Of a stretch of DNA of 23,590 bases, positions 1,096-4,025 are shown piece after piece. Made by a program: the position numbers and the translations under genes. The stretch's first letter is position 1. Every line of letters begins with the position of its first letter. Below the pieces are notes generated by a model that made no database searches, was not told the DNA's origin, and worked only from the letters and a program-made list of their open reading frames with translations. Where the stretch lies: the NCBI GenBank assembly GCA_004524445.1, contig SDNP01000037.1, positions 1-23,590 on the forward strand. Direction: 5' to 3'. The stretch comes from Candidatus Thorarchaeota archaeon (GTDB lineage Archaea > Asgardarchaeota > Thorarchaeia > Thorarchaeales > Thorarchaeaceae).

Positions 1096-2472
1096 ATGCC
1101 TGTACATCCATACATTCCTAATAGCACACCAGAAATCAAGAAGAAGATGCTTCAAGAGATTGGCGTGGAGAGCGTAGAAGAGCTCTTTTCCTGTGTACCC
1201 GACAACATCAAGCTGAAGAGGCCTCTGAACATACCTCCACCCGCTTCTGAGGCAGAAGTCGTCAACACCATATCAGGTATATTGTCCAAGAATAGGTATG
1301 GATCTGATCTTCTTTCCTTTCTGGGTGCAGGATGTTGGCCTCATTACATTCCATCAGTATGCAATGAAATTAACTCACGGTCCGAGTTTGTAACTGCGTA
1401 CACTGGAGATGTATATACTGACCTTGGTAGGTATCAGGTCTTGTTCGAGTTTCAGAGTATGATTGGCGAGCTGGTTGGCCTTGATGGCGTAGGATTTCCT
1501 CTGTATGATTGGTCAACTGCATGCGGTGACGCTGCAAGAATGGCGACAGCCATAACTGGTCGAAAAAAGATCCTAGTGCCAGCCTCCATGAGTCCTGAGA
1601 AACGGGCTGTGATGCAGGCTCATGTTGAAGGTTTAGCGACCGTAGAGAAAATACCCTTCTTCGCGGAGGATGGTCAAGTTGTGCTTGAAGAAATAGAGGA
1701 GAAGGTATCAGATGAAACTGCAGCCGTCTACATAGAAAATCCCACCTACCTTGGTTATTTGGAGTCGCATGCGCCTGAGATTGGCGAAATTGCACACGGC
1801 CATGATGCATTATTTCTGGTGGGTGTTGAACCTCTATCCTTGGGACTCCTAGAGGCACCTGGAAAATACGGTGCTGATATAGTCTGCGGTGAGGGCCAGC
1901 CTCTTGGAATTCCAACCTCTTTCGGAGGTGCCTTGATGGGCTTTCTTGCCTTCAAGGATGAAGAGGAGTACGTTGCAGCCAGTGGTAATCGAATGATAAC
2001 ATTGACTGATACCGCCAGAGAGGGGGAATTTGGTTTTGCTTACATAATGCCTGAGCGGACTATTTTCTGTGCACGGGACAAGGCCAATACATCTACGGGA
2101 ACTGCCACAGTGCTTTGGGCTATCACTGCTGCTGTATACCTATCTTTGCTAGGGCCTCAGGGCATTCAAGAACTTGCTGAGGTCATTATGCAGAAGTCAC
2201 ATTATGCTATGAAGAAACTGGGAGAGATAGGCGGAGTCAATACCCCAGCCTTCGATGCAGTTCACTTCAAGGAGTTCACCGTAGACTTCAATGAATGTAG
2301 CAAATCTGTGGATGATATCAATAAGGAATTGCTGCGTCATGATATCCAAGGAGGAAAGAATCTGAAGTATATGTTTCCCGAATTGGATGAGACTGCCTTG
2401 TATTGTGTCACTGAAATCCACTCGCAACAAGACATTGATAGACTAGTAGCAACACTTGAGGAGGTTCTATAA
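1096..2472 (+). CDS. gcvPA: Glycine cleavage P-protein subunit 1-like (divergent paralogue)
   Basis: Motifs HPYIPNS, ML.EIGV.S.EELF, SFLGAG.W.HYIP, YIENP.YLG, GADIVCGEGQPLG and YCVTE. A GGTGAG RBS lies just upstream of the ATG. Substrate motifs deviate from the consensus (see findings). Confidence 0.9.
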   Translation: MPVHPYIPNSTPEIKKKMLQEIGVESVEELFSCVPDNIKLKRPLNIPPPASEAEVVNTISGILSKNRYGSDLLSFLGAGCWPHYIPSVCNEINSRSEFVTAYTGDVYTDLGRYQVLFEFQSMIGELVGLDGVGFPLYDWSTACGDAARMATAITGRKKILVPASMSPEKRAVMQAHVEGLATVEKIPFFAEDGQVVLEEIEEKVSDETAAVYIENPTYLGYLESHAPEIGEIAHGHDALFLVGVEPLSLGLLEAPGKYGADIVCGEGQPLGIPTSFGGALMGFLAFKDEEEYVAASGNRMITLTDTAREGEFGFAYIMPERTIFCARDKANTSTGTATVLWAITAAVYLSLLGPQGIQELAEVIMQKSHYAMKKLGEIGGVNTPAFDAVHFKEFTVDFNECSKSVDDINKELLRHDIQGGKNLKYMFPELDETALYCVTEIHSQQDIDRLVATLEEVL

Positions 2473-4025
2473 TGGAAGGCGCAAATAATACTGGCTATCA
2501 GGCAGTCATATGGAACGAGCCCCTCTTGCAACAATTAACCAGATCTGGTCGGAGAGGCATGCTTATCCCCAAAGCATCCGAACAAATCATGAAAGAGGTC
2601 GGAGATGTATCTGCAAACATACCGCGGAGTATTGCTCGTGAGAAGCCACCCGGATTACCGGAGCTTTCCGAACCCGATGTCACCAAGCATTTTATTCGCC
2701 TATCCCAGCAGAACTTTGGAACTGACTCGGGCATAAATGCTGGTGTGGGCACATGCACCATGAAATACAATCCCAAGGTCAATGAAGCTCTTGCTCGATC
2801 TCCTGCGTTAGCAGGCTTGCACCCCTTCCAAGATGAGAGTACAGTCCAAGGAATCCTAGAAGTAATGCACAACTTGAATGAATGGCTCTGTGAGATTGCT
2901 GGAATGGAGAAATTTTCATTTCAACCGCGTGGTGGAGCACATGCAGTCTTCGCTAATGCTCGGATTATGCAAGCATATCACAACGCCCGTGGAGAGGCTG
3001 AACAGCGCGATGACATAATTACAACCGTGCTCTCGCATCCCTGTAATGCTGGTTCTCCAGCAGTTGCTGGTTACCATGTGACCATGTTATACCCCGAGAA
3101 AGAAACTGGTATTCCAAGCGTGGAGGCTCTGAAAGCGGCTGCTTCAGAAAAAACAGCTGGTCTAATGATAACCGACCCCTATGATACAGGAGTATTTGAT
3201 GAAAACCTCAAGGAATACATCGATATCGTACATGAAGTGGGGGGCCTTGTTGCAATCGACCAGGCAAATGCCAACTCCATCTTGGGGAAAGTCCGAATTG
3301 GCGATGTGGGTGCAGACTTATGTCATTTCAATCTTCACAAATCGTTCTCAACCCCACACGGTTCCTGTGGACCTGGAAGCGCTCCGCTTGGTGCTAGTGA
3401 AGAACTAGTTGATTATCTGCCTGTTCCGACTGTTGATTTTGATGGGGCGAATTACTACTTGAACTACGATCGGCCCAAAACCATTGGAAAAATAGGCGAC
3501 TTCTACGGAGTGATTCCTAATATCATTCGTGCTTACGCTTGGATTATGTCAATGGGGGCAGAAGGTCTTGAGGAAGTCTCAGAAGTGGCTGTAATTAACA
3601 ACAACTATCTCATAAGTAAAATCCTAGGATTAAAGGGAATAACACTACCATGGGCTGAGGAACACCCATACAGAATGCAAGAAGGTCGATTCTCTCTAGA
3701 AGTGATGGAAAGAGAAACTGGAATAGGTATAGAGGAATTCAATCGCAGGATTATAGACTATGGTGTCCAACGTCTCTTCACCAGCCATGAGCCTTGGGTA
3801 TTCCCTGAACCCTTTACTCCTGAGCCCCCTGAATCAGTATCAAAAGAAGATTTGGACAGATTTGCCCATGTCATAGCACAGGTTGCAAAGGAAGCATATA
3901 ATTCGCCTGAAATTGTTAGACAAGCACCGCATAATTGCTCTGTGGCCAAGATAGACCACTCAACAGCTTCAGATCCAACCAAGTGGGCAATGACCTGGAG
4001 AGCATATCGTAAGAAACATGGGTGA
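2472..4025 (+). CDS. gcvPB: Glycine cleavage P-protein subunit 2-like, PLP-binding (divergent paralogue)
   Basis: Motifs LPELSEPDV..HF.RLSQ.N, GTCTMKYNPK, the PLP-lysine motif HFNLHKSFSTPHG, and EPPESVSKEDLD. TAATG stop/start overlap with gcvPA. Confidence 0.9.
   Translation: MEGANNTGYQAVIWNEPLLQQLTRSGRRGMLIPKASEQIMKEVGDVSANIPRSIAREKPPGLPELSEPDVTKHFIRLSQQNFGTDSGINAGVGTCTMKYNPKVNEALARSPALAGLHPFQDESTVQGILEVMHNLNEWLCEIAGMEKFSFQPRGGAHAVFANARIMQAYHNARGEAEQRDDIITTVLSHPCNAGSPAVAGYHVTMLYPEKETGIPSVEALKAAASEKTAGLMITDPYDTGVFDENLKEYIDIVHEVGGLVAIDQANANSILGKVRIGDVGADLCHFNLHKSFSTPHGSCGPGSAPLGASEELVDYLPVPTVDFDGANYYLNYDRPKTIGKIGDFYGVIPNIIRAYAWIMSMGAEGLEEVSEVAVINNNYLISKILGLKGITLPWAEEHPYRMQEGRFSLEVMERETGIGIEEFNRRIIDYGVQRLFTSHEPWVFPEPFTPEPPESVSKEDLDRFAHVIAQVAKEAYNSPEIVRQAPHNCSVAKIDHSTASDPTKWAMTWRAYRKKHG

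Follow-up and report, generated by a model that had tools for sequence, protein, structure and literature searches.

A divergent family of glycine decarboxylase-like subunit pairs with a kinase-fold partner, represented in Candidatus Thorarchaeota

Four head-to-tail genes on the forward strand open a contig of a Candidatus Thorarchaeota archaeon and encode an amine-dehydrogenase-like protein, homologues of the two subunits (GcvPA and GcvPB) of the glycine-cleavage P-protein, and a member of the ATP-NAD kinase family. The window analyzed here is the first 23.6 kb (23,590 nucleotides) of contig 42 (SDNP01000037.1) of the 2.8 Mb assembly. The PA/PB-like pair belongs to a separate and widespread family, descended from the two-subunit P-protein, which has kept the fold and the pyridoxal 5'-phosphate (PLP) core of its ancestor. 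This family appears to have rebuilt the substrate side and the channel loop for lipoamide and the H-protein, and most likely it has given up both glycine as a substrate and lipoyl-H-protein as a partner. The gene conserved beside it is the kinase-fold gene, not that of the H, T, or L protein. Our favored interpretation, held with slightly more confidence than doubt, is a PLP enzyme that acts without H-protein on a compound other than glycine, as part of a catabolic module coupled to a kinase.

Paralogue status and rewritten motifs of the PA/PB-like pair

The genes and sites at the center of the analysis are:

1..996, forward strand: amine dehydrogenase/2,4-diaminopentanoate dehydrogenase-like gene (Pfam DAP_DH_C, E 7e-30), its 5' end lost at the contig start
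1096..2472, forward strand: GcvPA-like subunit of the divergent family, 458 aa (NF001696, 487 bits versus a cut-off of 364)
2472..4025, forward strand: GcvPB-like PLP-binding subunit of the divergent family, subclade A, 517 aa (NF003346, 539 bits versus a cut-off of 441)
3339..3341, forward strand: codon of the PLP Schiff-base lysine K290 (in NLHK), aligned to the NLHK lysine of 1WYT_B
4022..5158, forward strand: "ATP-NAD kinase family" protein with the diacylglycerol kinase/NAD kinase (DAGK/NADK) fold, 378 aa (Pfam NAD_kinase, NAD_kinase_C, and DAGK_cat)
4382..4396, forward strand: GGDGT kinase motif (G121-T125), located in the N-domain of the partner protein and unchanged in 49 family members

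The PA and PB open reading frames (ORFs) are intact and overlap by their stop and start codons (TAATG), and the GTG start of the kinase-family gene lies inside the PB stop (overlap GTGA). The functional unit consists of three translationally coupled genes: PA-like, PB-like, and a predicted small-molecule kinase of the DAGK/NADK fold. Relative to the orthologues in a genome of the same genus (G001), the ratio of non-synonymous to synonymous substitution rates (dN/dS) was 0.077 for PA, 0.072 for PB, 0.13 for the kinase, and 0.081 for the amine dehydrogenase; the pair is under strong purifying selection and shows no decay. In Pfam, PA and PB matched solely GDC-P, GcvP2_C and, weakly, class-V models.

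Both subunits are homologous over their full length to the chains of the Thermus thermophilus P-protein (PA, E 4.5e-69 to 1WYT_A; PB, E 5.2e-86 to 1WYT_B). A second, canonical gcvPA/PB pair is encoded on contig 34 of the same genome, together with topoisomerase VI, SAMP1, and an archaeal MiaB-type enzyme, genes that identify the host as an archaeon. This copy scores 558 and 725 bits on the family models compared to 487 and 539 bits for the window pair; likewise, it reaches 279 bits to 1WYT_A and 519 bits to 1WYT_B, versus 236.5 and 293 bits for the window proteins. The window pair is thus a paralogue of the genome's canonical P-protein. Among 24 other genomes of the same taxonomic family, all matched the query, and the divergent pair was found only in the same-genus genome (91% identity). 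A search of five other carrier genomes with the GcvPB model yielded a separate, higher-scoring two-subunit copy in four and a single-chain GcvP in the fifth, Actinomadura. Some carrier genomes hold two divergent copies.

In the window's genome, gcvT and gcvH lie together on contig 30. A second gcvH is located on contig 25 (15984-16334, locus L116, 121 bits), at a distance from gcvT and the two P-protein pairs. Between one and three gcvH genes were found in each carrier genome checked. Absence of gcvH had been considered as support for H-protein independence and was dropped, since all five further carrier genomes have the gene.

HMMER alignments of the window proteins with 1WYT_A and 1WYT_B revealed replacements in nearly all hallmark loops. 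In PA, AYTPYQPEVSQG of T. thermophilus is replaced by AYTGDVYTDLG, which is shorter by one residue, NASMYDG by GFPLYDW, and REQYIRRAKAKSNITT by RTIFCARDKANTSTGT. In PB, the corresponding exchanges are EPAAGAHGE to QPRGGAHAV, SAHGSN to LSHPCN, LTNPNT to ITDPYD, DGAN to DQAN, and PHGGGGPG to PHGSCGPG. A further rewritten block was found in the PB C-terminal domain, where canonical H..PT.YFP....A.MIEPTE reads Q..FTSHEPWVFPEPFTPEPPE. The PLP core is kept and invariant: K290, H189, D263, H289, and H296 correspond to K754, H651, D727, H753, and H760 of human GLDC, and K290 is the same in every aligned sequence, canonical and divergent.

For a family-wide comparison, 25 canonical sequences were assembled (E. 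coli GcvP, the Actinomadura single-chain GcvP, the genome's own copy, and copies from relatives and four other carrier genomes), and columns conserved in at least 90% of them were taken as canonical. In the divergent family, 60 of the 143 canonical PB columns are altered, about 24 of them fixed to another residue, and 39 of the 85 canonical PA columns are altered as well. The same replacements were found again in more than 100 homologues. Because of this recurrence and the low dN/dS of both subunits, they are attributable neither to chance nor to decay.

Residue classes (active site, tunnel, and H-interface) were taken from a published homology and docking model of human GLDC (PMC7259800, S5 table). 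The GLDC-equivalent positions near PLP that are kept in the window pair are Y161, T559, G618, H651, T698, H753, K754, and H760. The positions that differ are:

GLDC Y164: gone through a one-residue deletion in the AYTPYQPE loop
GLDC C382: replaced by G
GLDC G728: replaced by Q
GLDC S701/T702: replaced by Y/D in the window and by E/D in subclade B
GLDC G762/G763: replaced by S/C
GLDC G621/E622: replaced by A/V
GLDC S557: replaced by T

In the alpha-subunit motif with the modeled H-interface, Q366, T367, I372, and R373 are replaced and K376 alone stays; Q366 of GLDC sits in the lipoamide channel (PMC4767401). The same stretch is also poorly conserved inside the divergent family. Furthermore, the family has acquired invariant acidic residues at PB D238 and PA D109 and a newly acidic position at PA D/E105, and polar or basic residues have become fixed at Q264, N377, H439, T94, S188, and T449, and in subclade A at R153.

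These results agree well with the original prediction, which had described two intact, coupled genes, an intact PLP lysine, and eight motif replacements that included new acidic residues. All eight replacements recur in the alignments. The changed loops, which it had placed along the PLP, substrate, and lipoyl channel, coincide with positions classed as active site, tunnel, or H-interface in GLDC.

Maximum-likelihood trees were calculated for both subunits. In the PB tree, the divergent family forms one clade with a Shimodaira-Hasegawa-like approximate likelihood ratio test (SH-aLRT) support of 100 and a stem of 0.94 substitutions per site. The PA tree, from which five spurious rows were left out, shows the same single split between divergent and canonical sequences (SH-aLRT 100). 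E. coli GcvP and all canonical copies fall outside the divergent clade in both trees, and the clade spans Archaea and Bacteria. The trees were computed without the P-proteins of T. thermophilus and B. subtilis; by motif states and bit scores, the T. thermophilus protein groups with the canonical set. The divergent and canonical groups were defined from the tree, as a split by motif expressions was too narrow and misassigned part of the family (subclade B). There are two subclades: the smaller one, A, which includes the window pair, is marked by TDPYDTG, LSHPCN, and QPRGGAHA, and the larger one, B, reads TNPEDTG.

The family is large. At least 589 relatives were confirmed, counting one genome per GTDB species, and the PB-like protein is 60-91% identical to members of more than 120 clusters (90% identity level), which carry the name glycine dehydrogenase subunit 2 or GcvPB in their source records. 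Among the relatives listed are Bathyarchaeia, Heimdallarchaeota, Hadarchaeota, Thermoplasmata, Chloroflexota, Acidobacteriota, Aminicenantes, Bacillota, Actinomycetota, and Synergistota, and Fretibacterium fastidiosum, Maledivibacter halophilus, and Actinomadura rupiterrae are among the carriers in culture. Of the named relatives, those from Bathyarchaeia are nearest to the window pair. No description of the divergent family was found in the searchable literature. One Bathyarchaeia contig (CAZJUU010000080.1, positions 1-6817, locus L042) carries two tandem divergent PA/PB pairs, one per subclade, with a single kinase gene between them. Apparent PA-PB fusions in high-GC loci (L087/L123, L094, L106, and L107) were rejected as ORF-calling artefacts; their upstream part has no PA homology and a branch length of 4.7.

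Both window subunits exceed the NCBIfam equivalog cut-offs for GcvPA and GcvPB (NF001696 and NF003346), and RefSeq names the Rhodococcus and Paracoccus members gcvPA/gcvPB with the GO term "glycine catabolic process". Databases thus mislabel the divergent family as GcvPA/PB, as the original prediction had expected. Compared to GcvPA/GcvPB (EC 1.4.4.2; T. thermophilus 1WYT/1WYU/1WYV), the window pair is alike in full-length homology, in the two-gene order with a stop/start overlap, in the PLP lysine, the stacking histidine, and the N1 aspartate, and in passing these cut-offs. It differs in about 40% of the canonical-invariant columns, mostly in AYTPYQPE, NASMYD, REQHIRREKATSNIC, AGAHGE, SAHGTN, TNPNT, DGAN, and PHGGGG, in its separate clade, and in its linkage to a kinase-fold gene instead of gcvT, gcvH, or lpd. 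The pair therefore has the homology, the hidden Markov model match, and the PLP core of a P-protein, but not its substrate and lipoamide motifs, a place in the verified clade, or an association with gcvT, gcvH, or lpd.

The original prediction had combined a non-glycine paralogue with a cleavage system, which would imply the use of lipoyl-H-protein. The first part is supported by the second canonical pair in the genome, which it had suggested looking for, by the position of both subunits outside the verified glycine decarboxylases, and by the apparently rebuilt substrate side. The second part finds no support: no gcvT, gcvH, or lpd was found in the 23.6-kb window or, by ORF clustering, among the recurrent neighbors in 80 related loci, and the motif of the modeled H-interface is rewritten and variable.

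The kinase-fold partner

The 80 related loci were searched by tblastn with the window proteins. A homologue of the kinase-family protein (34-57% identity) was present in 62 of them, in Archaea and Bacteria, and in most it lies directly beside PA/PB; clustering of all neighboring ORFs gave the same picture. The original prediction had drawn no connection between the pair and this gene.

The partner protein matches Pfam NAD_kinase (PF01513, E 4e-22), NAD_kinase_C (PF20143, E 4e-17), and DAGK_cat (E 9e-6). None of the NCBIfam NadK models was matched; the sole NCBIfam match was a putative lipid kinase (18 bits), and a phmmer search of the PDB returned nothing at E up to 1. Within the kinase family, 71 of the 378 positions are invariant, including NPxAGxGG, GGDGT, and GGQGxxFGRGNQ, and the family comprises about 1,170 clusters at 50% identity (E up to 1e-30). 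The structural model had a predicted local distance difference test (pLDDT) score of 88. Foldseek gave weak matches to NAD kinase 7QVS, with template modeling (TM) scores of 0.23-0.29, and VIA-align superposed the N-domain (residues 5-211) on 7QVS with Z 12.0 (133 residues) and on DAG kinase 2QVL with Z 11.9. The protein thus shows the N- and C-domain homology and the GGDG motif of NAD kinase (EC 2.7.1.23), but neither a match to a curated NadK model nor a close solved NAD kinase.

The kinase family also keeps company with other enzymes. On the Peptoclostridium acidaminophilum plasmid EAL2_808p (positions 8992-11068, locus L133), a kinase-family gene (46% identity) overlaps the start of a gene for a 328-aa HisC/CobD-like PLP enzyme, which scores 230 bits on HisC and 144 bits on CobD, both under the cut-off; no P-protein homologue is annotated beside this kinase gene. 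In four database proteins (P0126, P0128, P0129, and P0240), the kinase domain is joined to a class-III aminotransferase domain, and in P0235 (792 aa, metagenomic) to a PdxB-like 2-hydroxyacid dehydrogenase with DUF3410. Whether or not these joined proteins are merged neighbors, they show same-orientation adjacency to the kinase. In RefSeq, Rhodococcus and Paracoccus modules combine an "ATP-NAD kinase family protein" or "NAD(+)/NADH kinase" with gcvPA and gcvPB, surrounded by short-chain dehydrogenases (SDRs), an APC permease, an acyl-CoA synthetase, an ArgE/DapE deacylase, or an AmiC/ANTAR-type regulator pair.

HisC, CobD, and PdxB act on phosphate esters, and the class-III aminotransferase family includes phospho-lyases that work downstream of dedicated kinases. 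Because the kinase family is found with enzymes of these types and their phosphate-ester chemistry, we propose that the kinase may supply a phosphorylated substrate to its PLP partner. Known pairs of a kinase and a PLP enzyme are L-threonine kinase with CobD, and hydroxylysine or ethanolamine kinase with class-III phospho-lyases. The window module resembles them in the coupling of a kinase gene to a gene for a fold-type-I PLP enzyme and in the carbonyl-handling enzymes nearby. It differs in its PLP enzyme, which is a heteromeric P-protein derivative outside the HisC/CobD and class-III families, and in its kinase, which has the DAGK/NADK fold and is not of the GHMP, APH, or BluE type.

A further parallel is acoX, a gene of the NAD-kinase family that lies ahead of the acetoin dehydrogenase genes (acoXABC), beside a short-chain or butanediol dehydrogenase gene (PMC6722718). 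AcoX is still described as of unknown function (PMC10107126). By description, both cases place an "ATP-NAD kinase" family gene within a catabolic operon, next to a decarboxylase or cleavage enzyme with a lipoyl carrier. They differ in the partner, which is a thiamine-diphosphate E1 enzyme for AcoX and not a PLP enzyme.

Proposed function and competing explanations

The upstream gene (1..996) belongs to the wider family of amine dehydrogenases and 2,4-diaminopentanoate dehydrogenases. The ATG at position 16 is internal to this gene, and positions 1-17 of the NF040740 (Ord) profile are absent. It shares the fold and the domain DAP_DH_C with the solved members (6G1M, 7XDU, and 6IAU), and differs from Ord in a score of 220.7 bits, below the cut-off of 400. 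Its full-length G001 orthologue (344 aa) matches PDB entries 7XDU (E 1e-54) and 6G1M (E 1e-52), as well as the amine dehydrogenase entries 7R09, 7QZL, and 6IAU. A conserved link between this gene and the PA/PB-like pair was considered and rejected: tblastn found homologues in none of the 80 related loci, and the association is specific to this genus. In G001, the gene directly upstream, with the same orientation, encodes a LivK-type binding protein, two genes for Liv-type permeases are transcribed divergently, and an aldehyde:ferredoxin oxidoreductase is encoded about 3.7 kb upstream. Taken together, the binding protein, dehydrogenase, PLP pair, kinase, and aldehyde:ferredoxin oxidoreductase suggest a locus that takes up an amino compound and degrades it to an aldehyde.

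In the 80 loci, the remaining neighbors vary. SDRs occur in 38, often as a tandem pair, and a Tdh-like zinc-dependent alcohol dehydrogenase (Zn-ADH) with a sigma-54 activator lies beside the pair in Clostridia and Synergistota. Transporters are of the ABC, Liv, DUF819, and MFS types. Oxidoreductases include aldehyde:ferredoxin oxidoreductase (L035 and G001), indolepyruvate:ferredoxin oxidoreductase (IOR), and iron-dependent alcohol dehydrogenase (Fe-ADH). Other neighbors are M20 deacylases, class-III and class-I aminotransferases, an MttB-family methyltransferase, a CoA-transferase, a DAO-type flavoprotein, a 2-hydroxyacid dehydrogenase, and an amidohydrolase.

A tentative proposal for the chemistry is that the P-protein-derived heteromeric PLP enzyme acts on an O-phosphorylated amino compound made by its own kinase. 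An imported hydroxylated amino compound would be phosphorylated by the putative kinase, and the PLP enzyme would then decarboxylate the phospho-amino compound, as CobD does with threonine phosphate, or eliminate its phosphate. The carbonyl or amine product would be passed to the accompanying dehydrogenases or to aldehyde:ferredoxin oxidoreductase. In this archaeon, the unit would sit in an uptake-and-catabolism operon with the LivK-type protein, the amine dehydrogenase, the PA/PB-like pair, and the kinase. If so, the module could represent an undescribed decarboxylase or phospho-lyase pathway, horizontally spread in anaerobic Archaea and Bacteria, that feeds aldehydes or ketones to ferredoxin- or NAD-linked oxidoreductases. 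Both the kinase activity of the partner and the order of the steps are putative. For a phosphate site in the substrate pocket, the alignments show the newly fixed polar and basic residues side by side with the new acidic ones (PB D238 and PA D109), as far as sequence alone can tell.

Several observations weigh against a kinase-coupled, H-protein-independent enzyme of this kind. The activity of all members is predicted, both subunits pass the NCBIfam equivalog cut-offs, and gcvH is present in all checked carriers, so an H-protein encoded elsewhere could serve the pair. The active-site and H-interface classes derive from a homology and docking model of human GLDC; a solved structure of the complex does not underlie them. 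An adjacent kinase gene is missing from 18 of the 80 loci, though many of these end at contig ends, and the kinase family also occurs without PA/PB, as in Natronosalvus, where it lies beside non-PLP genes. The N-domain of the partner matches periplasmic binding proteins as well as NADK and DAGK (Z ~12); the fold evidence alone is not decisive because these proteins match equally well. Each of the joined proteins, class-III or PdxB, is a single gene call from a metagenome and may be two neighboring genes merged into one. Finally, the new acidic PB D238 and PA D109 suit a cationic group better than a phosphate.

This last point leads to an alternative that we regard as doubtful, yet deserving of attention, in which the pair would be a plain decarboxylase for a basic or diamino acid, in line with the larger or basic substrate that the original prediction had named as possible. 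The acidic residues newly fixed in the pocket (PB D238, PA D109, and PA D/E105) would bind the second amino group, the kinase would be an accessory that does not make the substrate, and the amine dehydrogenase would oxidize the amine to an aldehyde for the aldehyde:ferredoxin oxidoreductase. The P-protein scaffold is that of a decarboxylase, an amine dehydrogenase (nearest solved entries 7XDU and 6G1M) is encoded directly upstream, and the sister-genome locus has the LivK-type protein and the oxidoreductase. However, no amine dehydrogenase was found in the 80 other loci, where the kinase is the recurring partner. In the window, the kinase gene is translationally coupled to PB; moreover, members of its family occur with other PLP scaffolds, an argument for a direct chemical link. 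A second glycine decarboxylase isozyme, perhaps glycine-synthesizing or used under other conditions and supplied with H-protein from elsewhere (e.g., from the contig 25 gcvH), is unlikely. It would account for the equivalog scores, the intact PLP core, and the two gcvH genes of this genome (one to three in other carriers), but not for the family-invariant replacements at the human GLDC disease positions Y164, C382, G728, S701, G762, and G763 (PMC7259800), nor for a lipoamide-channel motif that is rewritten and not conserved within the family. Furthermore, none of the 80 loci has gcvT, gcvH, or lpd next to the pair, a canonical P-protein co-occurs in all six carrier genomes searched, and a long stem separates the divergent clade.

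Quite improbable, in our estimate, is a decarboxylation-dependent transaminase resembling dialkylglycine decarboxylase, whose intermediate would be hydrolyzed to an aldehyde or ketone and pyridoxamine phosphate, with a 2-oxo acid restoring PLP and the aldehyde going to aldehyde:ferredoxin oxidoreductase, ADH, or SDR. Such chemistry would fit the loss of the H-protein interface and the recurrence of aldehyde- and alcohol-handling neighbors (aldehyde:ferredoxin oxidoreductase, Fe-ADH, Zn-ADH, and SDRs). It leaves the conserved kinase without a role, however, has no support at the level of residues, and relies on neighbors that vary widely between loci. The kinase might also serve the cofactor, for example by phosphorylating pyridoxal, with the chemistry of the PA/PB-like pair independent of phosphorylation. 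The occurrence of the family beside or joined to three PLP scaffolds (GcvP-like, HisC/CobD-like, and class-III aminotransferase) would be explained in this way. We give this explanation very little credence, as the family is also joined to the PdxB-like dehydrogenase, a non-PLP enzyme, and lies beside non-PLP genes in Natronosalvus, and cofactor salvage genes are presumably rare within catabolic operons.

The glycine-cleavage label inflates the inferred capacity for glycine cleavage and for the reductive glycine pathway in metabolic reconstructions of Bathyarchaeia, Asgard archaea, Chloroflexota, Aminicenantes, and Clostridia, lineages that are widely used in ecological and eukaryogenesis models. 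As the module is compact, with three genes, and present in cultured organisms, its substrate should be findable by ordinary assays. Knowledge of the substrate would reveal how the scaffold of a lipoyl-dependent decarboxylase came to be put to another use, and could explain a kinase-fold family that has been without an assigned function since acoX was described. A phosphorylated substrate, if true, would provide a first function for the "ATP-NAD kinase family" proteins encoded in catabolic operons, perhaps AcoX among them.

Further genes of the window

Two genes downstream of the kinase are syntenic in G001:

5406..6359, reverse strand: EamA-family transporter (Pfam EamA, E 3e-26), with the same position and orientation in G001
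6474..6959, forward strand: AsnC/Lrp-type regulator (Pfam HTH_24, HTH_AsnC-type, and AsnC_trans_reg), a candidate amino-acid-responsive regulator of the locus

Between this regulator and a DinB-like gene, about 2.5 kb are deleted relative to the same-genus genome (7023-7716, reverse strand). The leftovers are the first 136 codons of a gene for a 611-aa phosphodiesterase/sulfatase-like protein (7309-7716, reverse strand) and the last ~88 codons of a gene for a 377-aa GFO/IDH/MocA oxidoreductase (7023-7286, reverse strand).

Four tandem paralogous ORFs of 156-168 aa were found at 8881-10964 on the forward strand. They share 26-39% pairwise identity, have hydrophobic stretches, and match no Pfam model; the ORF upstream of them (8408-8899) is unrelated. 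A 369-aa protein (14770-15879, reverse strand) has an N-terminal small-GTPase domain of the Ras/Roc/Arf type (Pfam Ras, E 3e-41), followed by about 190 unassigned residues. The window ends with tandem P-type cation ATPase genes on the reverse strand (18987-21743 and 22241-23590), the second of which runs off the contig end.

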